From the sequence record MZ398247.1: a stretch of 39,224 bases of DNA. The stretch is one strand, 5' to 3'. Each line of letters opens with the position of its first letter. The stretch's first letter is position 1. The notes below the pieces were generated by a model. It searched no databases, had not been told where the DNA came from, and saw only the letters and a program-made list of their open reading frames with translations. A program made the position numbers and the translations under genes. The DNA is from Enterobacteria phage IME177. Below, piece by piece: positions 1,293 through 39,224 of this stretch.

Positions 1293-3824
1293 ATGTCCAC
1301 GATTACACAATTCCCTACAGGAAACACTCAGTACAGGATTGAGTTCGACTACCTAGCCAGAACGTTTGTTGTTGTTACGCTGGTGAATAGCTCTAACCCT
1401 ACCCTGAACCGTGTACTGGAAGTTGGTCGAGATTACCGATTCCTTAATCCAACGATGGTTGAGATGTTGGTTGACCAATCAGGTTTCGACATCGTTCGCA
1501 TTCACCGTCAGACTGGAACTGACTTAGTGGTAGACTTCAGGAATGGCTCAGTGTTGACAGCTAGTGACCTGACCAATTCAGAGCTTCAGGCTATCCATAT
1601 TGCAGAAGAAGGTCGAGACCAAACGGTTGACTTAGCGAAGGAATATGCCGATGCTGCTGGTAGCTCTGCTGGCAACGCTAAGGATAGCGAGGACGAAGCA
1701 CGCCGAATCGCTGCGAGTATCAGGGAAGCTGGTCTAATTGGCTATATTACCCGTCGCTCCTTCGAGAAAGGCTACAACGTTACAACATGGAGCGAGGTCC
1801 TGCTATGGGAAGAGGATGGTGATTATTACCGCTGGGATGGTACGCTTCCAAAGAGTGTTCCTGCTGGTTCAACTCCTGAAACTTCCGGTGGGATTGGATT
1901 AGGTGCGTGGGTTAGTGTTGGTGATGCTGCTTTAAGAAGTCAGATTTCAAACCCGGAAGGGGCAATACTCTACCCGGAATTGCAGATGGCAAGATGGCGT
2001 GATGAGGGTGATGTTCGAGGCTGGGGTGCTAAAGGGGATGGTGTAACAGATAGTACGGAGAATATAGCCGCTTCACTAAATTCTCAAAAAGCTGTCGTAG
2101 CATCAGAAGGTGTATTCTCTAGTTCTGGTATTAATAGTGATTACTGTAACTTAGACGGTAGAGGCAGTGGGGTGCTAAGTCACCGTTCCAGTACAGGTAA
2201 CTACTTAGTATTTAACAATCCACGTACAGGTCGCTTAAGTAATATTACGGTAGAAAGTAATAAGGCGACGGATACCACTCAGGGACAGCAGGTATCTCTT
2301 GCTGGTGGCAGTGATGTTACGGTAAGTGACGTTAACTTCTCAAACGTTAAAGGTACTGGTTTCAGTTTAATCGCATACCCTAATGATGCGCCACCTGATG
2401 GGCTTATGATTAAAGGCATTCGAGGTAGCTATTCCGGCTATGCCACTAATAAGGCGGCTGGATGCGTACTTGCTGACTCCTCAGTTAACTCCCTCATAGA
2501 TAACGTCATTGCTAAGAACTACCCTCAGTTCGGAGCTGTAGAGCTGAAAGGTACAGCCAGTTACAACATAGTTAGTAATGTTATAGGGACAGATTGCCAG
2601 CATGTAACCTACAACGGTACTGAAGGGTCAATAGCTCCTTCTAATAACCTTATCAAGGGGGTAGTTGCTAATAATCCTAAATATGCAGCGGTTGTTGCAG
2701 GCAAAGGTAGTACCAACTTAATCTCCGATGTGCTTGTAGATTTCTCAACCTCTGATGCTAGGCAGGCTCATGGTGTTACAGTAGAAGGTCCTGATAACGT
2801 CATAAATAATGTGCTTATGTCAGGGTGTGATGGTACTAACTCTTTAGGGCAAGCTCAAACTGCTACAATTGCACGCTTTATAGATACAGCTAATAACAAC
2901 TATGCGTCTGTATTTCCTAGCTACAGTGCTACAGGTGTTATTACTTTCGAATCAGGTTCTACCCGTAACTTCGTAGAGGTAAAGCATCCGGGAAGGAGAA
3001 ACGACCTTCTCAGTGCTACTGGTACTATTAGCGGTGCAGATACTATTGACGGCACTAATAATAGCAACGTAGTGCACGCCCCTGCATTAGGGCAGTACAT
3101 AGGCAGTATGTCCGGTAGGTTCGAATGGCGGATTAAGTCCATGTCACTTCCATCAGGGGTTCTTACCTCTGCGGATAAGTACAGGATGCTTGCCGATGGG
3201 GCTGTGTCATTAGCTGTAGGCGGAGGTACTTCTTCTCAAGTACGCCTGTTCACTTCTGACGGCACTTATAGGAATATATCACTTACTAGCGGTAACGTGC
3301 GTCTTCCTACCAGTAGCACAGGTTATTTGCAGTTAGGTTCTAATGCAATGACCCCAGATAGTACTAATACATACGCATTAGGTTCCGCAAGTCGAGCATG
3401 GTCTGGCGGTTTTACTCAATCAGCATTCACTGTTGTCTCAGATGCTAGGGATAAAACAGAGCCTCTTAATATCTCAGATGCTTTACTGGATGCTTGGTCT
3501 GAAGTTGACTTTGTGCAGTTTCAGTACTTGGACCGAATTGAGGAGAAGGGTGCAGACTCAGCTAGATGGCACTTCGGCATCATCGCTCAGCGAGCTAAGG
3601 AGGCCTTCGAACGTCACGGTATAGATGCACACCGCTATGGCTTCCTGTGCTTCGACAGTTGGGATGATGTATACGAGGAAGATGCCAATGGCTCTCGTAA
3701 ACTGATTACACCAGCAGGTTCCCGCTACGGTATTCGTTACGAGGAAGTACTGATATTAGAGGCTGCGTTGATGCGGCGTACTATTAAGCGTATGCAGGAA
3801 GCATTAGCTGTTATGTCTAAGTGA
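1293..3824 (+). CDS. gp17: tail fibre / tailspike protein: T7 gp17-like N-terminal anchor + pectate-lyase-3-like beta-helix domain + C-terminal intramolecular chaperone (peptidase S74-like) domain
   Basis: 843-aa ORF with RBS aaaggagg. N-terminus (EFDYLARTFVVVTL...HIAEEGRD) resembles T7 gp17 N-terminal domain; WGAKGDGVTDSTENIAASL is the hallmark start of pectate-lyase-3 beta-helix domains; C-terminus carries SDARDK...RWHFGIIAQRAKEAF, the pattern of self-cleaving chaperone domains of phage tailspikes. Confidence 0.88.
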   Translation: MSTITQFPTGNTQYRIEFDYLARTFVVVTLVNSSNPTLNRVLEVGRDYRFLNPTMVEMLVDQSGFDIVRIHRQTGTDLVVDFRNGSVLTASDLTNSELQAIHIAEEGRDQTVDLAKEYADAAGSSAGNAKDSEDEARRIAASIREAGLIGYITRRSFEKGYNVTTWSEVLLWEEDGDYYRWDGTLPKSVPAGSTPETSGGIGLGAWVSVGDAALRSQISNPEGAILYPELQMARWRDEGDVRGWGAKGDGVTDSTENIAASLNSQKAVVASEGVFSSSGINSDYCNLDGRGSGVLSHRSSTGNYLVFNNPRTGRLSNITVESNKATDTTQGQQVSLAGGSDVTVSDVNFSNVKGTGFSLIAYPNDAPPDGLMIKGIRGSYSGYATNKAAGCVLADSSVNSLIDNVIAKNYPQFGAVELKGTASYNIVSNVIGTDCQHVTYNGTEGSIAPSNNLIKGVVANNPKYAAVVAGKGSTNLISDVLVDFSTSDARQAHGVTVEGPDNVINNVLMSGCDGTNSLGQAQTATIARFIDTANNNYASVFPSYSATGVITFESGSTRNFVEVKHPGRRNDLLSATGTISGADTIDGTNNSNVVHAPALGQYIGSMSGRFEWRIKSMSLPSGVLTSADKYRMLADGAVSLAVGGGTSSQVRLFTSDGTYRNISLTSGNVRLPTSSTGYLQLGSNAMTPDSTNTYALGSASRAWSGGFTQSAFTVVSDARDKTEPLNISDALLDAWSEVDFVQFQYLDRIEEKGADSARWHFGIIAQRAKEAFERHGIDAHRYGFLCFDSWDDVYEEDANGSRKLITPAGSRYGIRYEEVLILEAALMRRTIKRMQEALAVMSK

Positions 3825-6975: not shown

Positions 6976-7134
6976 ATGGCAAAGACCAAAGCTGTACTTA
7001 AAGCTCTGGCGACCAATCGAGCTACATACAGGTTTCTTGCTGCTGTTCTACTTGCTGCTGGCGTTACTGCTGGAAGTAAGTGGGTCGGGTGGGTCGAGAC
7101 TCTCGTATGTTCTCTGGTGTCTCAGTGTAATTAA
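6976..7134 (+). CDS. small hydrophobic protein (gp19.5-position ORF)
   Basis: 52-codon ORF with strong RBS caggagg 8 nt upstream; hydrophobic core LAAVLLAAGVTAG; last ORF before the genome-end region. Below the 60-aa cutoff of the ORF track. Confidence 0.45.
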   Translation: MAKTKAVLKALATNRATYRFLAAVLLAAGVTAGSKWVGWVETLVCSLVSQCN

Positions 7135-7167
7135 CGCAATCATGGTAACGATTCATGAGCGGAAGAC

Positions 7168-7210
7168 CTAAGGTCAGTACGTGGATAAAGACTCACTCTA
7201 CTGACCTTAG
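7168..7210 (+). promoter_or_regulatory. perfect 12-bp inverted repeat (ctaaggtcagta / tactgaccttag) with 19-nt loop
   Basis: Read directly; lies in non-coding DNA between the last late gene and the putative terminal repeat. Confidence 0.4.
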
Positions 7211-7372
7211 CTACTGTAGTCAAGGACTTTAGGTAACACCTTAATAGAAGCTCACCTAGGGTCATCCTACTTATTGGTCTATCCTAGTGTCGCCTGACCT
7301 ACGGTCCTTGACCTACAGTAGCTGCCACCTACGGTCACTCGATGAGTTTTGGACCAAAAGTTTGAGACCACA

Positions 7373-7590
7373 TCTCACAGTTCAAGAACCTCAAGTCTCC
7401 CCATAGGCCCTCTTTAAGTCCAGACCAAAGGCCCTACCCGTTACTGCTCCTTGCAGTCACAGCCAGTCTATCATAAGGTTAGACCGATGGTCAAGACGTT
7501 AGGTCAACTATAGGTCTAGGCTATGGCTGGAGGTCAGGACGATAGGTAGGGACTATGGGTCTGTCTCTGAGTCTCTATCTGTATAACCAT
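7373..7590 (+). repeat. probable direct terminal repeat / physical genome end region (single copy in this permuted assembly); boundaries approximate
   Basis: tctcacagttcaagaacctcaagtctccccatagg resembles the T7 left end (TCTCACAGTGTACGGACCTAAAGTTCCCCCATAGGGGG as recalled); flanked on both sides by ACCTAC(A/G)GT short repeats, as the T7 terminal repeat is flanked by CCTAAAG-type repeats. Confidence 0.4.
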
Positions 7591-7593
7591 AGG

Positions 7594-7623
7594 TCCTACA
7601 ACCTACAGTCCTACAACCTACAG
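7594..7623 (+). repeat. perfect tandem direct repeat, 15 bp x 2 (tcctacaacctacag), part of an array of ACCTAC(A/G)GT motifs (also 7305-7345, 7630-7670)
   Basis: Exact repeat read from the sequence; at least 7 copies of the core motif between 7305 and 7670. Confidence 0.7.
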
Positions 7624-7794
7624 TCTAACTAACCTACAGTATCAACCATAAGACACCAACACCTACGGTCATAGACCCACAGTTAATAGACACAAAGCTA
7701 TAGACTTGAGGTCAACGACATGTTAGTCAAAGACTATATCCTATTACACCATGGGGCCGACGATAGCTTAATCAATATTATTTAAGATTACCTA

Positions 7795-7823
7795 TTGACT
7801 ACAGGTCCAGACTATGGCTTAAT
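7795..7823 (+). promoter_or_regulatory. sigma70-type early promoter (A1-like): -35 TTGACT, 17-bp spacer, -10 CTTAAT
   Basis: ttgactacaggtccagactatggcttaat parallels T7 A1 (TTGACTtaaagtctaacctatagGATACT as recalled); downstream leader resembles the T7 A1-A2 interval. Confidence 0.45.
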
Positions 7824-7935
7824 AGCTTCCGTCAACACGACACGGCAACAACCGGATAGTGAAGACGCCGGGTCATCCCGGTTAAGTAGACAGCCTGATA
7901 AGTCATACGAACAACAGGCAGATGACAGAAAGTAG

Positions 7936-7965
7936 TTGACAAGATGTACCGACTTAAAGTAGTAT
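7936..7965 (+). promoter_or_regulatory. sigma70-type early promoter (A2/A3-like): -35 TTGACA, -10 TAGTAT
   Basis: ttgacaagatgtaccgacttaaagtagtatgtaccac parallels T7 A3 (TTGACAacatgaagtaaacacggTACGATgtaccac as recalled). Confidence 0.55.
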
Positions 7966-8173
7966 GTACCACATCAACACGAAACAACGGTGACGACCAA
8001 CACTGAAACGGTCTACCTGAAGTCCTCTGACTGAAGGGAATGCTCTTTAACAATCTGGATAAACTCTTAATGTGCGCCGACAGTGATTAACTACAGGGTC
8101 TTTGAGTCTACATCTGAAGGCCCTGACTGATAGTCACTAACATACACACAATTAACTTTGAGAGGATATAACT

Positions 8174-8677
8174 ATGGAACGTAACGCTAACGCATACTAT
8201 GAGCTGCTGGCTGCAACCGTTGAGGCATTTATCGAGCGTATTCAGTACGACCACCTGACTAAAGATGATGACTACAGCGATGCGCTGCATGAGGTCGTAG
8301 ACAGTCAGGTCCCGCTCTATTACCACGAGATTTTCACGGTGATGGCTGCTGATGGTATAGACCACGAGTTCGAAGACTCTGGGCTGATGCCTGAAACCAA
8401 GGACGTAACGCGTATCCTACAAGCTCGCATCTATGAGGCACTTTATAACGACGTGTCTAATAGCTTGGATGTAGTCTGGTTTGAGGATGAAGAGGCAGAC
8501 GAAGAGGATGAATATTGGGTAGTTGACGCTAAAACAGGCGCAATAATTGTGCAAGCTGTAGCTCTTGAGGTCGCTACTGCATGTGCCAAGGTCAACTATG
8601 TGATAGGTCGCCACCTGAAGGTGGAAGACATCAATGATAACGTAGTGTTCGACCCTGCGGCTGAGGACTGCGAGTGA
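8174..8677 (+). CDS. gp0.3: Ocr-like anti-restriction DNA-mimic protein (gp0.3-like) with an extra ~50-aa C-terminal extension
   Basis: 167 aa, first gene after the early promoters; [44 protein letters not shown] matches the core of T7 Ocr as recalled; highly acidic; T7 Ocr is 117 aa. Confidence 0.8.
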
Positions 8678-8893
8678 TGATAACTTACGGTTTATGCCAG
8701 CACCACGTCACCAACGCCCGGATTTTGGTCAAGACCGGGCGGTTAAACCACGAGGAGGCCATGCGTCTCTTGAAAGTGGTCTACAGGAGGCGCAAGCGCA
8801 TACACGACAGCCTACACGCTGAGTGATAAACGAGAGGTCATCTGACTGATAGGTGGCCTCAAAGATTATCACTTACATTGATAGGAGTTAACT

Positions 8894-8998
8894 ATGAGCA
8901 CTGCAATCATCTGGACTATCTCAGGCTTCGTAGCGTGGGGAATGTTTACTCTAGTCTGCAAACTACCGGTCCTTACTCAACTGTTATGGGGCTTATGA
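8894..8998 (+). CDS. small hydrophobic early protein (34 aa)
   Basis: ATG preceded by RBS ggag; sequence MSTAIIWTISGFVAWGMFTLVCKLPVLTQLLWGL is membrane-like; stop overlaps next start (ATGA). Not in ORF track because <60 aa. Confidence 0.4.
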   Translation: MSTAIIWTISGFVAWGMFTLVCKLPVLTQLLWGL

Positions 8999-9198
8999 CT
9001 ATGAGTATCGCACTATTGATAGCCATAGGCTATGGACTTATCGCCTACGTGCTGGTGAGAGACATCAACAAAGCGCGTAAAGTCTACAAATTAAACTATG
9101 TACGTCTGGGTCGCTGGACTGTACGTCAACCTAACGGACGATTCCTGCGCAATTTAGCGAACGTCTGGGATATAGCAACTCTTGGGAGCAAACTGTAA
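8995..9198 (+). CDS. small early membrane protein (67 aa)
   Basis: In-frame ATG of track ORF 8878-9198; TM segment SIALLIAIGYGLIAYVLV followed by basic tail; translationally coupled to flanking ORFs. Confidence 0.45.
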   Translation: MTMSIALLIAIGYGLIAYVLVRDINKARKVYKLNYVRLGRWTVRQPNGRFLRNLANVWDIATLGSKL

Positions 9199-9524
9199 TG
9201 AACAAGTCATACGGGATTAATCTGGTACACTCTATGGACGCAGAAATGAACATGTTAAGCCTACTGGCTACCGGGTATCGTCACGGAACGTCAAGTCACA
9301 CCGCACGTCAACAGCAGGAGCGGGACCGTGTACTACAGGCGCGACTCCGGGCAGAGGGCCATAAGTCCGAACTGATGTGTCTGGCGTATGGTGGACGACC
9401 AATCACCGACGATGGTAAACTTCTGGTATCAGGCTGGAAGGCGATAGACCAACGGTCAACCATCAAGCACACGACTCACGGTGACTTCAGCCATCTCCAC
9501 GCTAACCCACTGATATGCAAGTGA
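9198..9524 (+). CDS. hypothetical early protein (108 aa) at the position of T7 gene 0.7; no kinase motifs
   Basis: ORF starts with TAATG overlap of upstream stop; last gene before the RNA polymerase gene; no similarity recognised. Confidence 0.5.
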   Translation: MNKSYGINLVHSMDAEMNMLSLLATGYRHGTSSHTARQQQERDRVLQARLRAEGHKSELMCLAYGGRPITDDGKLLVSGWKAIDQRSTIKHTTHGDFSHLHANPLICK

Positions 9525-9529
9525 TTATG

Positions 9530-9552
9530 ACTTAACTATCACTATAGGACTC
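9530..9552 (+). promoter_or_regulatory. phage RNA polymerase promoter directly upstream of the RNA polymerase gene, predicted +1 at 9547
   Basis: cttaactatcactataggactca; 75 nt upstream of the gene 1 start codon. Confidence 0.75.
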
Positions 9553-9621
9553 AAGGTCTAAGACTCCAAGTGAAAGACCAAAGAGACTTTAAGTGAAAGA
9601 CTAATAACAAGGACTTTAAGT

Positions 9622-12303
9622 ATGAGCGTCATCTCTATTGATAAACACGACTTCTCTGATGTGTCGAACGCCATTGAGCCGTTTAACCTGCTGGCCGACC
9701 ACTACGGGCAAGACCTTGCAGTCAAACAGCTTCAGCTTGAGCATGAGGCATATACAGAAGGCGAGCGACGTTTCATCAAGAACCTTGAGCGCCAGACCGA
9801 GCGCGGGGAACTGGCAGACAATCAGGTCGCCAAGCCTTTGATGCAGACTCTGGTCCCTAAGATTGCGCAAGCCGTCAGGGAGTGGCACGAAGGCCTAGAC
9901 GGGAAGCTGTCAACCTCGCGTCCTAGCGTAGCGTTCACCATGTTGAGCACTGAAGAGAAGGCCGTAAAGGACCGCTCTATGCGCATCTCCTGTGAGTCCG
10001 CTGCGGTTATCATACTGAAGGTCATACTCTCCAAGCTGGTCAAGCCTGAAGGGATACCGATTACACCGATGGCCTCCGCGATAGGTCGCACACTTGAGGA
10101 CGAAATCCGCTTCGGTCGCATCCGTGACAAAGAGAAGGAGCACTTCAAGAAGGCGATAGCTGAGAACCTGAACAAGCGAGCTGGGGCATCCTACAAGAAA
10201 GCCTACATGCAAGCGGTCGAGGCGTCCATGCTGGAGCAAGGCCAACTGGAAGATGCATGGGGGACTTGGAGTCCTACAGAGGCTGTCCACGTTGGCATCA
10301 AGATGCTCGAGATTGTCATCCAGTCAACACAACTGGTCGAGCTTAAGCGGTACGGTGCTGGTAATGCAGCGGCTGACGTAGAGATGGTCCACCTGTCAGA
10401 CTTCTGGGTCAAGAAGATGGCACAACGAGGATTCAGCCTTGCGGGTATCGCTCCAGTCTACCAGCCTTGCGTCGTTCCGCCTAAGCCGTGGACTGGTGTC
10501 GTAGGTGGTGGGTACTGGGCCAAAGGTCGCAGACCGTTACCATTGATTCGCTTAGGGTCTAAGTCTGCGGTAGCACGTTATGAAGACGTATACATGCCTG
10601 AAGTCTATGACGCTGTGAACATCATTCAGAATACACCTTGGAAAGTTAACAAGAAGGTATTGGACGTGGTGAACATGGTCGAGAAGCTGAACAACACGCC
10701 TATTGATGACATCCCTCAGATGGAACCGCTGAAGCCTGAGGACTATGCTGGTGAAACCGAGGAGGAACTCAAGGCATGGAAGAAGGCTGCTGCTGGTATC
10801 TATCGCCGCGAGAAGGCCAGACAGTCACGCAGATTGTCCATGAGTTTCATCGTATCACAGGCCAACAAGTTCTCACAGTTTAAGGCCATCTGGTTCCCGT
10901 ACAACATGGATTGGCGAGGTCGTGTCTACGCTGTCCCGATGTTCAACCCTCAGGGTAACGACATGCAGAAGGGTCTACTGACTCTGGCGGTCGGAAAGCC
11001 TATCGGGGCGGATGGTTTCAAATGGCTTAAAGTCCACACCGCCAACTGCGCGGGTGTCGATAAGGTAACCTTTGAGGAGCGTATCAAATGGGTGGAAGAC
11101 AATCACGAGAACATTCTGGCAGCAGCCAAATCACCGATGGACAGCATCGAGTGGTGGGGGAGTATGGACAGCCCCTTCTGCTTCCTAGCGGCTTGCTTCG
11201 AGTATTCTGGGGTGATGAACCATGGCTTGACCTACAATTGCTCACTTCCGATTGCCTTCGACGGCTCGTGTTCGGGGATTCAGCACTTCAGCGCGATGCT
11301 GAGGGACCACGTAGGCGGACATGCAGTGAACTTAACGCCGTCTGGTCAGGTGCAGGACATCTACCGTATAGTCTCAGACCGTGTGTCAGACCAGTTGAAA
11401 GAGCTATTACTGAGCGGTACGGACGACGAGCTGGTGACCGTAGAGGACAAGAAGACTGGGGAAATCAGCGAACGCCTGAAGCTTGGGACCAAGAGTCTTG
11501 CGCGTCAGTGGCTGCAATTCGGTATGTCTCGCTCGGTCACTAAGCGCTCGGTCATGACTCTGGCCTACGGGTCGAAAGAGTATGGGTTCGCCGACCAAGT
11601 GTTCGAAGACACCGTGATGCCAGCGATTGACTCCGGTAAGGGAGCAATGTTCACCGAGCCAAGCCAAGCGTCTCGCTTCATGGCTAAGATGATTTGGGAA
11701 GCTGTGAGTGTGACAGTAGTTGCTGCGGTTGACGCGATGAAGTGGCTTCAAGGTGCCGCCAAGCTGCTGGCTGCTGAAGTGAAGGACAAGAAGACTGGTG
11801 AAATCCTGAAGCCATGCCTTCCGGTACACTGGGTCACACCTGATGGGTTCCCGGTCTGGCAGGAATACCGCAAGAAGGATACCACTCGTCTGAACCTGAT
11901 GTTCTTAGGGTCCTTCAACCTTCAACCTACGGTCAACAAAGGTACGAAGAAAGAGCTGGACAAGCACAAGCAGGAGTCAGGCATTAGCCCGAACTTCGTC
12001 CACTCACAAGATGGTAGCCACCTCCGCAAGACTGTAGTCCACACTCACCGAAAGTATGGCGTGATGTCATTCGCAGTGATTCACGATAGCTTCGGGACCA
12101 TCCCGGCTGACGCTGAGTATCTGTTCCGTGGCGTCCGTGAGACGATGGTAGAGACTTACCGCGATAACGATGTGCTGCTTGACTTCTACGAGCAGTTTGA
12201 ATACCAGCTTCATGAAAGTCAGCGCGACAAGTTGCCTGAGCTTCCGAAGAAAGGTAAACTGAATATCGAAGACATCTTGTCTTCAGACTTTGCATTCGCT
12301 TAA
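9622..12303 (+). CDS. gp1: single-subunit DNA-directed RNA polymerase (T7 gp1-like)
   Basis: 893 aa; colinear with T7 RNAP as recalled, including catalytic-Asp motifs AFDGSCSGIQHFSAMLRD and VIHDSFGTIPADA, specificity-loop region LNLMFLGSFNLQPTVNKGTK, C-terminal FAFA. Confidence 0.97.
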   Translation: MSVISIDKHDFSDVSNAIEPFNLLADHYGQDLAVKQLQLEHEAYTEGERRFIKNLERQTERGELADNQVAKPLMQTLVPKIAQAVREWHEGLDGKLSTSRPSVAFTMLSTEEKAVKDRSMRISCESAAVIILKVILSKLVKPEGIPITPMASAIGRTLEDEIRFGRIRDKEKEHFKKAIAENLNKRAGASYKKAYMQAVEASMLEQGQLEDAWGTWSPTEAVHVGIKMLEIVIQSTQLVELKRYGAGNAAADVEMVHLSDFWVKKMAQRGFSLAGIAPVYQPCVVPPKPWTGVVGGGYWAKGRRPLPLIRLGSKSAVARYEDVYMPEVYDAVNIIQNTPWKVNKKVLDVVNMVEKLNNTPIDDIPQMEPLKPEDYAGETEEELKAWKKAAAGIYRREKARQSRRLSMSFIVSQANKFSQFKAIWFPYNMDWRGRVYAVPMFNPQGNDMQKGLLTLAVGKPIGADGFKWLKVHTANCAGVDKVTFEERIKWVEDNHENILAAAKSPMDSIEWWGSMDSPFCFLAACFEYSGVMNHGLTYNCSLPIAFDGSCSGIQHFSAMLRDHVGGHAVNLTPSGQVQDIYRIVSDRVSDQLKELLLSGTDDELVTVEDKKTGEISERLKLGTKSLARQWLQFGMSRSVTKRSVMTLAYGSKEYGFADQVFEDTVMPAIDSGKGAMFTEPSQASRFMAKMIWEAVSVTVVAAVDAMKWLQGAAKLLAAEVKDKKTGEILKPCLPVHWVTPDGFPVWQEYRKKDTTRLNLMFLGSFNLQPTVNKGTKKELDKHKQESGISPNFVHSQDGSHLRKTVVHTHRKYGVMSFAVIHDSFGTIPADAEYLFRGVRETMVETYRDNDVLLDFYEQFEYQLHESQRDKLPELPKKGKLNIEDILSSDFAFA

Positions 12304-13125: not shown

Positions 13126-13374
13126 ATGAGCAGACGTTGGGTATTTGATGCGTCCACCAGCCAGTGGTCATCGTTAGGCCGGACACACCGCGAGCTGCGT
13201 GAGGCAGGACTTGAGGTCAGAATGGATGTCCTGCCGTGCTCCGGAAAGACTCTGGTCCTAATCATTGAAGCAGACGGGAAGCCTCTGGTATCCCGCGAGT
13301 TCACCGAACACGAAATCTTTAGCTGTGAGCAATGGTGCTTGCAACAACTGAATGCTTATAGGAGCTGGAAATAA
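13126..13374 (+). CDS. gp1.2-like protein (82 aa)
   Basis: Position between gp1.1 and ligase; size and C-terminal ...SWK similar to T7 gp1.2 (...DWK); weak similarity only. Confidence 0.5.
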   Translation: MSRRWVFDASTSQWSSLGRTHRELREAGLEVRMDVLPCSGKTLVLIIEADGKPLVSREFTEHEIFSCEQWCLQQLNAYRSWK

Positions 13375-14449
13375 TGACTACGACTATTAAAACTAACCCG
13401 CACCGCGCTGTAGATTACTCTGAGTCTGGCGTTAAGAAGGCTTTGGAAGCTGCCGGGTCGCTGGAAGCTGAAGTGAAGTATGACGGTGTGCGTATAAACA
13501 TCCCGGTCTTCCCTACTGGTGAGACCCAATGGTTGAGCCGTGAGTCTAAACCTCTCCCAGCCCTTGAGTGGCTGTCAGTCCTTACCAACATCGACAACAT
13601 CGTCAGGGACCAGCAAAAAGCTAGCGACTGGCGGTGGTTCCTGAAGCAGGCTGGCTACGAAGGCACTGGTCTGATGATTGACGGTGAGGTCATGGTAAAA
13701 GGAGTGGACTTCAATACGTCTTCAGGTCTAGTCCGTACCATGTGGTCAGACACTAAGAACTACGCTTGGAATGGCAACCCAGATGCTGACATCGACACCA
13801 AGAAGAAGCATAAGGTCCCTTTCCATCTGGCAACCGACTACATACGCGTGGTTGTCTACGGTATCGTGGACCTTAACGTCATCCTTGACCCGAAATCCGA
13901 GGTCCTATTCATAGCGTCACACGCCTGAAGGCCGAAGCTATCGTCCCTCTCCTCCAGAAATACTTCCCGGAAATCGACTGGGTTCTGTCTGAGTCACACA
14001 CGGTCTATGACCTTGAGTCGCTCAACTCCCTGTACGAACAGAAGCGTCTGGAAGGACACGAGGGTCTGGTAGTCAAGGACCCGCTTGGTAAATATAAGCG
14101 TGGCAAGAAGTCTGGCATGTGGAAAATGAAGCCTGAGGAGACCATCGACGGGACCGTGTGTGGCCTCGTGTGGGGGACTCCGGGTAAGGCCAACGAAGGT
14201 AAGGTGATTGGCTTTGAGGTTCTGCTTGAGGATGGCATGGTGGTTAACGCCTGTGGTCTGACTGAAGAACAGAAGGATGAGTTTACGGAAGCCTGTAACA
14301 CTGATACATATATTCTCGGTGGAATCAATCCATACGAAGGCTGGCAGTGTGAAGTCCTCTTCATGGAGCGCTTCCCTGATGGTTCCCTTCGTCACCCTAG
14401 CTTCAAGTGCTGGCGCGGGACGGAAGACAATCCAACCGTTAAGAGTTAA
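13374..14449 (+). pseudogene. gp1.3: ATP-dependent DNA ligase (gp1.3-like) with reading frame interrupted: N-terminal ORF 13374-13928 and C-terminal part in the -1 frame (open 13889-14449)
   Basis: N-part has ligase motif I EVKYDGVR and is colinear with T7 ligase; C-part (...PLLQKYFPEIDW...EGHEGLVVKDP...GSLRHPSFKCWRGTEDNP) continues the alignment in another frame. Adding one base near 13924-13926 (cc run) restores a ~370-aa ORF. Confidence 0.8.
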
Positions 14450-14493: not shown

Positions 14494-14531
14494 TTGTGCT
14501 AGCAAGCTATCGTCTGGGCCACCAGCTGGAC

Positions 14532-14554
14532 CCTAAGCTATCACTATAGGACAA
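14532..14554 (+). promoter_or_regulatory. phage RNA polymerase promoter (phi1.5-like), predicted +1 at 14549
   Basis: cctaagctatcactataggacaa. Confidence 0.75.
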
Positions 14555-14578
14555 CCATCAACAACCTAAGGAGACTCT

Positions 14579-14833
14579 ATGTCTAAGAACTTAATGTTCA
14601 ACCGTTATACCGATACCTTCCACCTGTCCAACAACCCGTTCGCTTGCATTAAGCGAAACGAGAAGCTGGGCTACTTCGGGAAGGCCGTTAAGCTGTCACC
14701 TACAGTCTACGCTCTGATTACTCCGGGTAAAGCTGAAGAGGCCAGCCAGAAGCGTGAGGCCAACGTACCCGTGGTCTACACCAAGTGGCCTCGCGTTCGT
14801 CTGTTCGTTGAGGTCGTGAAGGAGATGTTCTGA
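14579..14833 (+). CDS. hypothetical protein (84 aa; gp1.6 position)
   Basis: ORF with RBS ctaaggag; position equivalent to T7 gene 1.6. Confidence 0.55.
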   Translation: MSKNLMFNRYTDTFHLSNNPFACIKRNEKLGYFGKAVKLSPTVYALITPGKAEEASQKREANVPVVYTKWPRVRLFVEVVKEMF

Positions 14834-14901
14834 CGGGATGTATAGCTTGCTTAGAGAAAGATGACCGTTACCCACATACATGCAATAAAGGAGCTAACAA
14901 T

Positions 14902-15371
14902 ATGAACGCACTTGAACAAGAGATTATCATTAAGTTGGTAGATAATAACGAAGGTCGCCCAGATGATTTGAATGGCTGCGGTATTTTCTGCCATAATGTC
15001 CCTTGCTACCTCTGTCCTGTAAATATCAATAAAAAGATAACCTTAGGTGAAATCCGAGCGATGGACATACGTAAGCCTAAACTGGAGAAACCAGAGGTAA
15101 CTACTACAGACGACCAGCCTTACGCTAAGGCTATCGACGACGTACGCAAGCCGTCCCACTATCAGTCTTTGACGGTGTGGAGTCCATTGAGATTATCGCT
15201 CGGTCCCTGACTGTCAGCGAGTTCCGTGGTTTCTGCATGGGTAACGTCCTGAAGTATCGACTCCGAGCTGGTAAGAAGTCCGAGCTGGCTACTATGGAGA
15301 AGGACCTGAACAAAGCAGCCTTCTATCAGGAGCTGTTCGACCTACATAGCGGTAAGTGCTATGACGCGTGA
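14902..15371 (+). pseudogene. gp1.7: gp1.7-like protein (putative nucleotide kinase) split into two overlapping ORFs (14902-15210 and 15177-15371) by a 1-nt frame disruption at a T run (15168-15170)
   Basis: N-part has Cys-rich CGIFCHNVPCYLCP; C-part ...IEIIARSLTVSEFRGFCMGNVLKYRLRAGKKSEL. Inserting one T in tcttTgac joins them into one ~155-aa ORF. Assignment to gp1.7 is by position and recalled similarity. Confidence 0.6.
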
Positions 15372-15588
15372 AGAACTTAAAGCTGTAGGGGTGAAGCGTA
15401 GAGCGCTCAGTTTTTACCGAGCATACAAGGCGCTACGTAAGGGTATGTTAGCGTTCTCATTAGGACACAGTGAGTATTATGACTCTGACCTCCTACCGTT
15501 TGCTTATATGAAGACTCCTAGTATGATTATTAGGGTAGAGGAGTATGACCATTCTGACGACTGTGTAATGGTGAACCGATATGCTTAA
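15361..15588 (+). CDS. hypothetical protein (75 aa)
   Basis: ATG overlapping the end of the preceding ORF; no motif recognised. Confidence 0.45.
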   Translation: MTREELKAVGVKRRALSFYRAYKALRKGMLAFSLGHSEYYDSDLLPFAYMKTPSMIIRVEEYDHSDDCVMVNRYA

Positions 15589-15675
15589 ACCGAGTGAGTG
15601 GTGCCGGGAGATGTACGAGAAGACTCTCAACCCGGACTACATTACGTTATACAACCAATGGAAGGAGCGTGGTCT

Positions 15676-15795
15676 ATGAACCAAGACCAGATTAACTTTG
15701 TGTGTCAGCTTATTAAGGAGTTCGTGGACTTCACTGATTTATCCGAAGAGGAACTTGTTAAGCTGGAAGAGATTCTCGACAAGGAGATTTTATGA
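15676..15795 (+). CDS. small acidic protein (39 aa); start uncertain (track ORF begins 15598)
   Basis: ATG with RBS ggag 9 nt upstream; stop overlaps gp2 start (ATGA). Confidence 0.35.
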
Positions 15796-20264: not shown

Positions 20265-20312
20265 TAGACTCAAGGTCATTCACATCGAGTGGCCTTTATG
20301 ATTAGACTAAAC
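20265..20312 (+). promoter_or_regulatory. conserved hairpin element, candidate RNase III processing site (copy 3 of 3)
   Basis: tagactcaaggtcattcacatcgagtggcctttatgattagactaaac; 15 nt upstream of the DNA polymerase start. Confidence 0.5.
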
Positions 20313-20326
20313 GCGGAGGATTAACC

Positions 20327-36504: not shown

Positions 36505-39224
36505 ATGGCGACTCGTGGTATTCGCAATAACAATCCGGGTAACATCCGGGTAAGTAAGGACCAATGGGAAGGAATGACTGGAGATGATGGCGCATTCGTC
36601 ACCTTCGATAGTCCAGAGTCTGGCGTCCGAGCTTTAGGTAAAAACCTGCTGTCCTACGGTCGCCGAGGTTATGACTCCATCGAGAAGATTATCAACCGAT
36701 GGGCACCTCCTAACGAGAACGACACTAAGGCTTATATCGACTCAGTGGTGGCTGCAACTGGTATTCCAGCTACCCAGAGTCTCGACCTATCGGACCCTGA
36801 CACCCTGTCTTCTCTGGCTCAAGCTATCAGCTTCCATGAGACAGGCTCCCGGTACGACCCTGAAGTCTATCAGAAGGGAGTCGCACGAGCGCTCAATGGC
36901 ATTAGCCCAAAGACTCCACCAGTAAGCGCTAACGTATTTGACGCACTCACGGAAGGACTCAAGGCTAAACCTAAAGTAGCTCTTGGTGAGAACCTTCCGA
37001 CCGCTGCTGGTCTAAACATTGAGGGTCAAGCACCTGAAGCTCCCAACGAATCGTTCGGTGAGATGTTCTATAAGTCTACTGGCGAGACCATGCAGGAACG
37101 AGAGGATCGCTCTACGTGGTTCGGTTTCGGTGCTGCTACAGAAGCTGAAGTGAAGAACTCTATGGTAGGCGTGGCTATCCGCGCTGGGCAGACAGAGGAC
37201 TCACTTGATGTCATTGGCGATGTGTTCAACCCGACCCGCTGGAACAACCATAAGTGGACTCGTGAAGAGCTTGACCAGATTCGTAACGCTGGGGTTCTGC
37301 CTCAGTATTACGGAGTCATTACTGGTGGCTCCCCTCAGAACCTGACCGAGCTTATTAACTTGGCGCTTGAGAACCAGAAGTTGGACCAAGAGAAGGCCAA
37401 GGCTGGGACTGGTGCTCAGTTAGCTGCTGGTGTGATTGGCGCTGGTGTAGACCCTCTGACATACGTTCCTATCGCTGGACAGGTTGGTAAAGGCGGTAAG
37501 CTGGTCAACAAGATGTTCACCGTGGCTGCTCAATCTGGAGCACTGGCTGGTGTGTCCGAGATGGCCCGTACCTCAGTGGCTGGTGGTGATGCTCATGTGG
37601 CTGAAGCTATCCTTGGTGGTGCTCTCTTCGGTGGTGGTATGACTGCTATCGCTGATGGGTTAGGCAGAGCCTTAGGTCGCAACACTAATGAGTTTGCTGG
37701 CCCAGCTACACGTCTGGAAGCTCGTGAGACCGCTCGTAACGTTGATGGTCAGGACCTGTCTCGTCTCCCTATTCAGGAAGGTGAGCAGACCTTTAGTCAT
37801 CAAGGCGTTAAGTTCGCTGACGTTCCGAACGAGCCGGGTAGTGTACGACTGGAAGATGGTTCAATCCTGATTGGTGAGAACCCTCTGAACCCTAAGACAC
37901 GTCAAGTCTTTGATGAAGTGATTGAGCCTGAACGTGCCGCTGCTGGTGTGAACCTTGGTGGGCTTACTGAGATTGGCCTGAAGCTGCTTCGGTCAGAGAA
38001 CCCTGAGATTCGTGGAGTCGCTGCTGACTTAGTGCGTTCACCAACTGGTATGCAGTCAGGGGCCTCAGGTAAAATCGGGACCACTGCGTCAGACGTATTT
38101 GAGAGACTTCGTGCTGTGGACCATCGGTTCTACAACGACATCGACGACGCGGTTACTGAGGCGCTCAAGGACCCATACTTCCAGACAGCATTCTGGCGAG
38201 ACTCTGGCGCATTCCGTCAGGACATCTACCAGCGTGTGTCTATGGCTATTGAAGACGGAAGTGGGAACCTGAAGGCTGAACTGACTCCGGGAGAACTGAA
38301 AGTATATGACCTGCTGAAGAACCAGTTTGACGCCAAGCGTGAGATGATGGAGAACCCGGCGATGTTTGGTCGTCCAGACGCTCAGTCTATCTTTCCGGGT
38401 AGCCGCTTCAAGGGAACCTACGTCCCGCATGTGTATAGCAACCAGATGAAGGAGCTGTACATCAAGGAGCTTGGGAGTCCAGAGGCACTACAGGAGGCCA
38501 TCAAGAAGTCATGGTTGACCAGCTATGCGTCTCGACCTGAGGTCAAGAAACGTGTGGACGAGGCACTCTTAGAGGCTGACCCTACGTTGACTCCAGAAGG
38601 ACTTGCGGCTGCGGTCGATAAGTACGCCAACGATAAGGCTTATGGTATCTCTCACACCGAGCAGTTCGAGCGTTCATCCGTAATGGAAGAGAACATCAAT
38701 GGTCTGGTGGGTCTGGAGAACAACAGCTTCCTTGAGGCTCGTAACCTGTTCGATAGCGATATGTCAATCGTCCTACCTAACGGTCAGACCTTCAGTGTCA
38801 ACAACCTGCGTGAGTGGGACATGGACAAGATTGTCCCGGCCTACAACCGTCGAGTTAATGGCGATATTGCTATCATGGCTGGTACAGGCAAGACCACGAA
38901 GGACATGAAGGACTTGGTTGAGACCATGATGAACAAGGCTGGGGATGACGGTAAGTTGAAAGGTGAAGTATCTACCTTACGTGACACCTTGAAGATTCTA
39001 ACTGGTCGTGCTCGACGTGATGGCGCTGATGATGCAGCCTTCGCTACCGTGATGCGCACAATGACAGACCTATCGTTCTTCGCTAAGAATGCCTACATGG
39101 GTGTTCAGAACTTAACGGAGATTGGTGGTATGCTGGCTCGTGGCAACGTTCGTGCAATGCTGCATCAGAACTTAACGGAGATTGGTGGTATGCTGGCTCG
39201 TGGCAACGTTCGTGCAATGCTGCA
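36505..39224 (+). CDS. gp16: internal virion protein D (gp16-like) with N-terminal lytic transglycosylase-like domain; 3' part continues at window positions 1-1228
   Basis: ATG 36505 after taaggag; ...SPTGMQSGASGK..., ...SRFKGTYVPHVY..., ...YGISHTEQFERSS..., ...NGDIAIMAGTGKTTKD... colinear with T7 gp16 as recalled; frame open to window end. Confidence 0.93.
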   Translation, partial: MATRGIRNNNPGNIRVSKDQWEGMTGDDGAFVTFDSPESGVRALGKNLLSYGRRGYDSIEKIINRWAPPNENDTKAYIDSVVAATGIPATQSLDLSDPDTLSSLAQAISFHETGSRYDPEVYQKGVARALNGISPKTPPVSANVFDALTEGLKAKPKVALGENLPTAAGLNIEGQAPEAPNESFGEMFYKSTGETMQEREDRSTWFGFGAATEAEVKNSMVGVAIRAGQTEDSLDVIGDVFNPTRWNNHKWTREELDQIRNAGVLPQYYGVITGGSPQNLTELINLALENQKLDQEKAKAGTGAQLAAGVIGAGVDPLTYVPIAGQVGKGGKLVNKMFTVAAQSGALAGVSEMARTSVAGGDAHVAEAILGGALFGGGMTAIADGLGRALGRNTNEFAGPATRLEARETARNVDGQDLSRLPIQEGEQTFSHQGVKFADVPNEPGSVRLEDGSILIGENPLNPKTRQVFDEVIEPERAAAGVNLGGLTEIGLKLLRSENPEIRGVAADLVRSPTGMQSGASGKIGTTASDVFERLRAVDHRFYNDIDDAVTEALKDPYFQTAFWRDSGAFRQDIYQRVSMAIEDGSGNLKAELTPGELKVYDLLKNQFDAKREMMENPAMFGRPDAQSIFPGSRFKGTYVPHVYSNQMKELYIKELGSPEALQEAIKKSWLTSYASRPEVKKRVDEALLEADPTLTPEGLAAAVDKYANDKAYGISHTEQFERSSVMEENINGLVGLENNSFLEARNLFDSDMSIVLPNGQTFSVNNLREWDMDKIVPAYNRRVNGDIAIMAGTGKTTKDMKDLVETMMNKAGDDGKLKGEVSTLRDTLKILTGRARRDGADDAAFATVMRTMTDLSFFAKNAYMGVQNLTEIGGMLARGNVRAMLHQNLTEIGGMLARGNVRAML
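39105..39224 (+). repeat. perfect 60-bp tandem direct repeat (2 copies, 39105-39164 and 39165-39224), in frame within gp16, ending exactly at the window end
   Basis: Both copies read tcagaacttaacggagattggtggtatgctggctcgtggcaacgttcgtgcaatgctgca; encodes a duplicated 20-aa segment QNLTEIGGMLARGNVRAMLH that T7 gp16 has once. Confidence 0.9.

Follow-up and report, generated by a model that had tools for sequence, protein, structure and literature searches.

Two overlapping ORFs lie on the + strand, in different frames, at 14902-15210 (102 aa) and 15177-15371 (64 aa) of the window, by which is meant the whole stretch of 39,224 nucleotides that was analysed. The window is the complete genome, in circularly permuted form, of a T7-like coliphage of the genus Kayfunavirus (Autographiviridae, Studiervirinae); its genes follow the order of T7, and its ends fall inside gene 16. 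BLAST of the regions 14500-15700 and 9000-33000 against deposited phage genomes returned Kayfunavirus relatives only. The top whole-region identity was 96.5%, and no record identical to the window was found among these genomes. The order of the class II block (ligase 1.3, 1.6, 1.7, 1.8, 2, 2.5) is the same in the window, in the phages R1, YZ1, Esher7 and HC12, and in T7. The two ORFs stand where T7 has its gene 1.7, after gene 1.6 and before genes 1.8/2, and a phage-promoter-like site is present upstream of genes 1.6, 1.7, 1.8 and 2. The promoter-like set to which ACTATCACTATAGG belongs comprises 13 matches at three mismatches or fewer, all on the + strand, as against 3.3 expected by chance. 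The coordinates of the features are collected in Table 1.

Table 1. Features of the class II region and other sites referred to in the text
Feature	Position	Strand	Remarks
Phage-RNA-polymerase promoter-like sites, exact	1229, 6778, 9535, 12855, 24748, 27575, 28571, 33117	+	ACTATCACTATAGG
Promoter-like sites with 1-2 mismatches to the above	14537, 15951, 18317	+	
ATP-dependent DNA ligase gene 1.3	13374..14449	+	Split into 13374-13928 and 14117-14449
Phage-promoter-like site	14537..14550	+	GCTATCACTATAGG; 1 mismatch vs a 14-mer present exactly 8 times in the genome
Upstream extension of long-form gp1.7	14833..14901	+	T-GCIACLEKDDRYPHTCNKGANN; in frame; start codon ACG at 14833-14835
Shine-Dalgarno AAGGAG	14888..14893	+	8 nt upstream of ATG 14902, the short-form start
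Gene 1.7, 5' fragment	14902..15210	+	Native codons 1-88 (14902-15165), then 14 out-of-frame codons; TGA 15208-15210
1-base deletion in gene 1.7, one G of GG	15165..15166	+	Relatives CAG GTC TTT (Q-V-F), window CAG TC TTT
Gene 1.7, 3' fragment	15166..15371	+	-1 frame; last two bases of Val89, F90 at 15168; TGA 15369-15371
Private codon change AAA to AGC (Lys150 to Ser)	15348..15350	+	Two-nucleotide change
Gene 1.8	15361..15588	+	Intact; 100% identical to R1; ATG overlaps the normal end of gene 1.7
Private 2-base (CG) insertion, ACGG to ACGCGG	20312-20315		Spacer/ribosome-binding region upstream of the DNA polymerase ATG 20327

Some features elsewhere in the genome should be mentioned. The tailspike/tail-fibre gene (1293-3824, 843 aa) is mosaic: over its full length it shares 98.6% identity with that of R1, and its match to pO2 and YZ1 is limited to the N-terminal 225-275 aa. 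This mosaicism is the usual exchange of receptor-binding modules. A perfect 60-bp tandem duplication stands at the end of the window, in gene 16 (39105-39164 = 39165-39224). When read round the circle it lengthens gp16 by 20 aa (1315 codons vs 1295), and its position at the contig end suggests an artefact of assembly or circularisation. In the Esher7 record (PQ593108.1) about 4 kb at the expected place of gene 16, 7081-11049, carry no annotated CDS, and this deposited record may have a frame problem of its own in that gene.

The two ORFs are halves of one gene

A sequence-only reading of this DNA had taken the two ORFs together for one protein, a gp1.7-like nucleotide kinase, and on both points it was right. 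ORF 14902-15210 matches positions 24-105 of the profile phrog_2585, 'nucleotide kinase' (E 1.6e-21), ORF 15177-15371 matches positions 111-173 (E 5.8e-36), and the joined ORFs match positions 24-173 of 175 (E 1.3e-67). Because each ORF matches a consecutive part of one family profile, the two are certainly the halves of one gene, gene 1.7. The joined ORFs also match Pfam DUF3310 (PF11753; E 1e-20). The Pfam gathering cut-off for this domain is 24 bits; the repaired protein, which is 156 aa long, scores 74 bits over residues 81-143 (profile positions 1-59 of 60), and the 3' ORF by itself reaches 57 bits (positions 13-59 of 60, E 1.6e-15).

By tblastn the repaired protein is 71.4% identical to T7 gp1.7 over residues 1-154 of its 156, in a single colinear piece, and the matching T7 segment (V01127.1 8289-8750) bears the annotation of the 1.7 protein. 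The Cys cluster and the PSHYxxFD and GNxLKYRLRAGKK motifs are shared with T7 gp1.7, and the window gene, like that of T7, follows gene 1.6 and overlaps gene 1.8. The internal ATG of the window, with its strong Shine-Dalgarno sequence, aligns with an internal Met of T7 gp1.7. The work of Tran et al. from 2010/2012 is said to place the beginning of the short form of the T7 enzyme at this Met. The window gene differs from that of T7 in its frame, which is broken after codon 88, in the ACG that stands at the long-form start and in the Ser that replaces the near-invariant Lys150. In addition, the T7-specific first 18 residues (MGLLDGEAWEKENPPVQA) are missing from Kayfunavirus. T7 gp1.7 phosphorylates dTMP and dGMP, and it is the only member of the family for which this activity is known (PMC11897194; PMC9712115). 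Gene 1.7 is also reported to make T7 sensitive to dideoxythymidine (Tran et al. 2008).

The nearest relatives are the gp1.7 proteins of R1 (vB_EcoP-R1, OQ703102), Esher7 (MirsaeidiM_Esher7, PQ593108) and YZ1 (MG845865), with 96.8-99.4% protein identity to the repaired gp1.7 of the window; for R1 and Esher7 the value is 99.4%. The DNA of all three is near-identical to the window on either side of the lesion, and their genes are intact, with annotated products of 156, 179 and 157 aa for R1, Esher7 and YZ1 respectively. Over its own length the 5' fragment is 96.7-97.8% identical to residues 1-90 of YZ1 and R1 gp1.7.

A single frame is the rule in the family. The repaired gp1.7 aligns as a single piece to each of the 60 best phage records, and in 490 records 80% or more of it is covered at one place. 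Of the best 120 homologue clusters from a collection of 5.8 billion proteins, every one is a single protein, 141-262 aa in length, that carries PF11753, and all but one of them (119/120) cover at least 94% of the repaired protein. Separate conservation of the two halves, which the sequence-only reading had named as an observation that would speak against a split gene, was found neither in these 120 clusters nor in the 60 best phage records, and the comparison with the closest relatives that it had called for gave gene 1.7 in one frame in all relatives examined. Measured against the single uninterrupted frame of the PF11753/phrog_2585 family, gene 1.7 of the window, which occupies two frames, falls short. 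The locus is thus a homologue of the family, but a disrupted copy as written. Apart from the broken frame it is a typical T7 gp1.7 family gene at the usual location, and nothing about it is new in kind.

The lesion in gene 1.7

The sequence-only reading had placed the split in a T homopolymer (TTT, 15168-15170) and had proposed to repair it by insertion of a T. The single-base break of the frame was confirmed, but its site and type were not. Alignment with R1, YZ1 and Esher7 gave a single gap, with CAC TAT CAG GTC TTT GAC in the relatives vs CAC TAT CAG TC TTT GAC in the window, so that it is a G of the GG pair that is missing. The placement of the deletion is ambiguous between 15164/15165 and 15165/15166. 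The GG is kept at this site in 11/11 relatives (6 GenBank genomes and 5 IMG/VR contigs). All 7 complete genomes of the comparison panel have it too, and against them the window alone shows the deletion. The TTT run is TTT in all relatives compared.

The homologues agree with this placement. The motif PS[HY]Y..FD is present in 112/120 homologue cluster representatives, and the two residues between PS[HY]Y and FD are ML in 93 of them, QV in 17, SM in 1 and TL in 1; QS, which the inserted T would give, occurs in none of the 112. Repair in the TTT run was therefore ruled out. The correct reconstruction reads ...KPSHYQVFDGVES..., and the restored residue is Val (HYQVFDG), not Ser.

The deletion allele was not found in any other public sequence. 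A degenerate 22-base pattern across the deletion gave no match in IMG/VR, JGI metagenomes or GTDB genomes, and the intact version of the pattern is present in 5 IMG/VR contigs. Nor are there exact records of the truncated gp1.7 proteins, of the truncated ligase or of the gene 1.6 product.

Consequences for the product

Codon 88 is the last before the deletion, which interrupts the Pfam domain (residues 81-143) at its start, in the conserved PSHYxxFD motif, with PSHY on one side and the invariant F/D on the other. The Cys-rich domain at the N-terminus, the linker and the first part of the PSHYQ motif are encoded by native codons 1-88, and the helical DUF3310 core by the 3' ORF, which is listed mechanically from GTG 15177. 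The PDB contains no relative of gp1.7 detectable by sequence, and there is no solved structure. An AlphaFold (AF2) model of the repaired protein, with a mean pLDDT of 66, consists of an N-terminal domain at 1-59 (pLDDT 73-89), a disordered linker at 60-94 and a three-helix C-terminal domain at 93-150, the last of which holds most of the invariant residues of the family. Foldseek of this model against the PDB gave helical-hairpin matches only, with E of 1 or more and no informative fold match.

Translation from ATG 14902 would give 88 native residues followed by 14 unrelated ones, and the helical C-terminal core would not be made. A Shine-Dalgarno sequence was found neither before GTG 15177 nor before ATG 15237. 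Since the core would be lost, and neither a ribosome-binding site nor a slippery sequence is there to rescue it, the allele as written is predicted from its sequence to be null. The next gene may be affected as well: the ATG of gene 1.8 lies within the normal 3' end of gene 1.7, and with translation stopping at 15210 the coupling of the two genes may be lost.

Start codons and other private changes in gene 1.7

In T7, YZ1 and Esher7 the long form of gp1.7 starts at an ATG that overlaps the stop of gene 1.6 (TGATG), whereas the window has ACG in its place. Apart from this start codon, the 23-codon extension (GCIACLEKDDRYPHTCNKGANN) is conserved with T7. In the window, translation can start at the internal ATG 14902 only. 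The same extension is broken in phage R1 by a 2-bp insertion, and for this reason the long form seems dispensable in Kayfunavirus. Another private change, in the 3' part of the gene, affects residue 150, which is Lys in 119/120 and Arg in 1/120 homologue clusters, and which has become Ser. Both ATG to ACG and Lys150 to Ser are private changes of a damaging type.

A companion lesion in the ligase gene and the count of private indels

The claim that a neighbouring class II gene suffers a second single-base frame break was also upheld. In ligase gene 1.3 one A of an AA pair has been lost (GAAGG to GAGG) at 13899/13900, where relatives have CCG AAG GTC and the window has CCG AGG TC. The gene is intact in 7/7 complete relatives, the closest allele being that of phage HC12, which shows 98.2% DNA identity and encodes an intact ligase of 357 aa. 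The repaired ligase of the window has 358 aa and carries both Pfam domains, DNA_ligase_A_M and DNA_ligase_C, as in the T7 gene 1.3 ligase; in contrast to T7, the gene of the window is split after codon 175 and its DNA_ligase_C domain is out of frame. The frame breaks in the ligase gene and gene 1.7 are 1,265 bp apart.

Over 39 kb, no more than three private indels set the window apart from the 7 complete genomes: the -1 in the ligase gene, the -1 in gene 1.7 and the +2 (CG) ahead of the DNA polymerase gene, in the spacer. None of the three lies in the approximately 27 kb estimated as essential coding sequence, which is the pattern expected after purifying selection. By a rough estimate, the chance of such a pattern under random errors is (12/39)^3 = 0.03. 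About 40 other conserved genes are each in a single frame, as judged by tblastn of all annotated proteins of three relatives. Private substitutions were also counted against the 7 genomes. Gene 1.7 has 1 non-synonymous change in 153 codons vs 0.32 expected, the ligase gene has 1 synonymous and 1 non-synonymous change in 357 codons, and neither broken gene shows a significant excess.

Discussion

Several explanations of the split gene have to be weighed, and those other than a genuine loss or an error of the consensus are, all together, very unlikely. One of these is programmed recoding, in which a -1 ribosomal frameshift or transcriptional slippage would yield the full-length kinase along with a shorter product, in the manner of T7 gene 10A/10B. 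The frame relation is indeed -1 and the frames overlap over 15129-15210. However, the X XXY YYZ heptamer is absent throughout the zero frame of the first ORF, no run of four or more bases occurs within 15100-15215, and the arrangement is not conserved, the protein being continuous in 11/11 relatives and also in the top 60 phage records and the top 120 homologue clusters. With neither slippery site, base run nor conservation, programmed frameshifting or slippage is effectively refuted and is scarcely credible. It could also be imagined that the gene functions in two pieces, the N-terminal Cys-rich domain and the C-terminal DUF3310 core working as separate polypeptides. Some relatives such as pO2 (109 aa) have no N-terminal domain, so the core can stand alone, and in the AF2 model a disordered linker connects two domains. 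Yet the break splits the Pfam domain itself, separating the PSHYQ motif from what follows; of the profile, the downstream ORF retains positions 13-59 only, it has no Shine-Dalgarno sequence at either candidate start, and such a split occurs in 0/120 homologue clusters. A functional two-piece gene is, on these grounds, highly improbable.

The choice then lies between an error in the record and a real loss of the genes. The sequence-only reading had offered systematic sequencing error as one of its two options, and an error tied to homopolymer length does not fit the data. Both frame lesions sit in 2-base runs (GG and AA), whereas the intact coding sequence (33.1 kb) contains 104 runs of 4, nine of 5 and one of 6, and all 114 keep the frame. 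An error specific to the sequence context was considered as well. AGGTC is common to both lesion sites, but the motif is abundant: counting both strands there are 143 copies, and on the + strand the window retains 44 further CAGGTC or AAGGTC sites. The kept sites argue against a context-specific error, and the shared motif was judged a coincidence. There is also the simpler case of a phage with intact gene 1.7 and ligase in which one base was dropped per site at basecalling, polishing or assembly, perhaps at low coverage. It is in keeping with this that the frame downstream of the gene 1.7 lesion is perfectly preserved and near-identical to relatives, that the two breaks lie within 1.3 kb, as a locally poor stretch of assembly would also explain, that the suspicious terminal duplication shows the assembly not to be flawless, and that the gene 1.7 deletion is seen nowhere else. 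Against it stand the correct longer runs, the surviving copies of the same hexamer contexts, the small number of private indels with their position outside the estimated essential coding sequence, and the changes ATG to ACG and AAA to AGC in gene 1.7, which are untypical of indel-type errors. A consensus or assembly error is thus possible but rather doubtful. We consider it probable, with some reserve, that the deletions in gene 1.7 and in the ligase gene are genuine and represent the recent loss of two dispensable genes. Of the two options in the sequence-only reading, real decay of dispensable genes is thus the better one, although no significant excess of substitutions, such as decay might leave behind, was seen.

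If the loss of both genes is genuine, the lineage of this phage would have lost gene 1.7 and ligase 1.3 through independent single-base deletions, and the thymidylate/guanylate kinases and the ligase of the host would be used in place of gp1.7 and gp1.3. As there is no significant excess of substitutions, the loss, if real, must be very recent. The dispensability of the two genes, which the sequence-only reading had assumed, holds for T7 under laboratory conditions. T7 gp1.7 is known to be non-essential under these conditions (PMC9712115), and both gp1.3 and gp1.7 have been deleted or disrupted in viable genome-reduced T7 (PMC9825161).

T7 gp1.7 was reported to activate Avs5, a SIR2-STAND defence protein of Escherichia fergusonii, and the authors of that study could not isolate spontaneous T7 mutants escaping from Avs5 (PMC11897194). 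It could be asked whether the loss of gp1.7 in the present phage is adaptive and not neutral, the phage having evaded immune sensing by giving up a trigger that it can do without. The sole basis for this idea is the null allele itself, and the idea is very unlikely to be correct. Were it true, the frameshift, the lost long-form start and K150S would make a natural example of escape from immune sensing, and the loss of the ligase could go back to the same host background.

The broken gene 1.7 is best seen as a common type of null allele, with a sequence error as the less likely alternative, and it is not a new kind of feature. For annotation this means that the two ORFs should be entered as one disrupted gene 1.7 (a pseudogene or frameshifted gene) with its lesion at CAG|GTC and not at TTT, and that ligase gene 1.3 should likewise be handled as one disrupted gene. 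Beyond annotation the importance of the finding is little. If the deletions are artefacts, the record contains two errors to be corrected. If they are real, the phage is a natural double knock-out of two accessory genes of DNA metabolism. It would then be mildly useful for studying the dependence of T7-like phages on the nucleotide kinases and ligase of the host, and could be used for testing the reported relation between gp1.7 and Avs5 as trigger and sensor.
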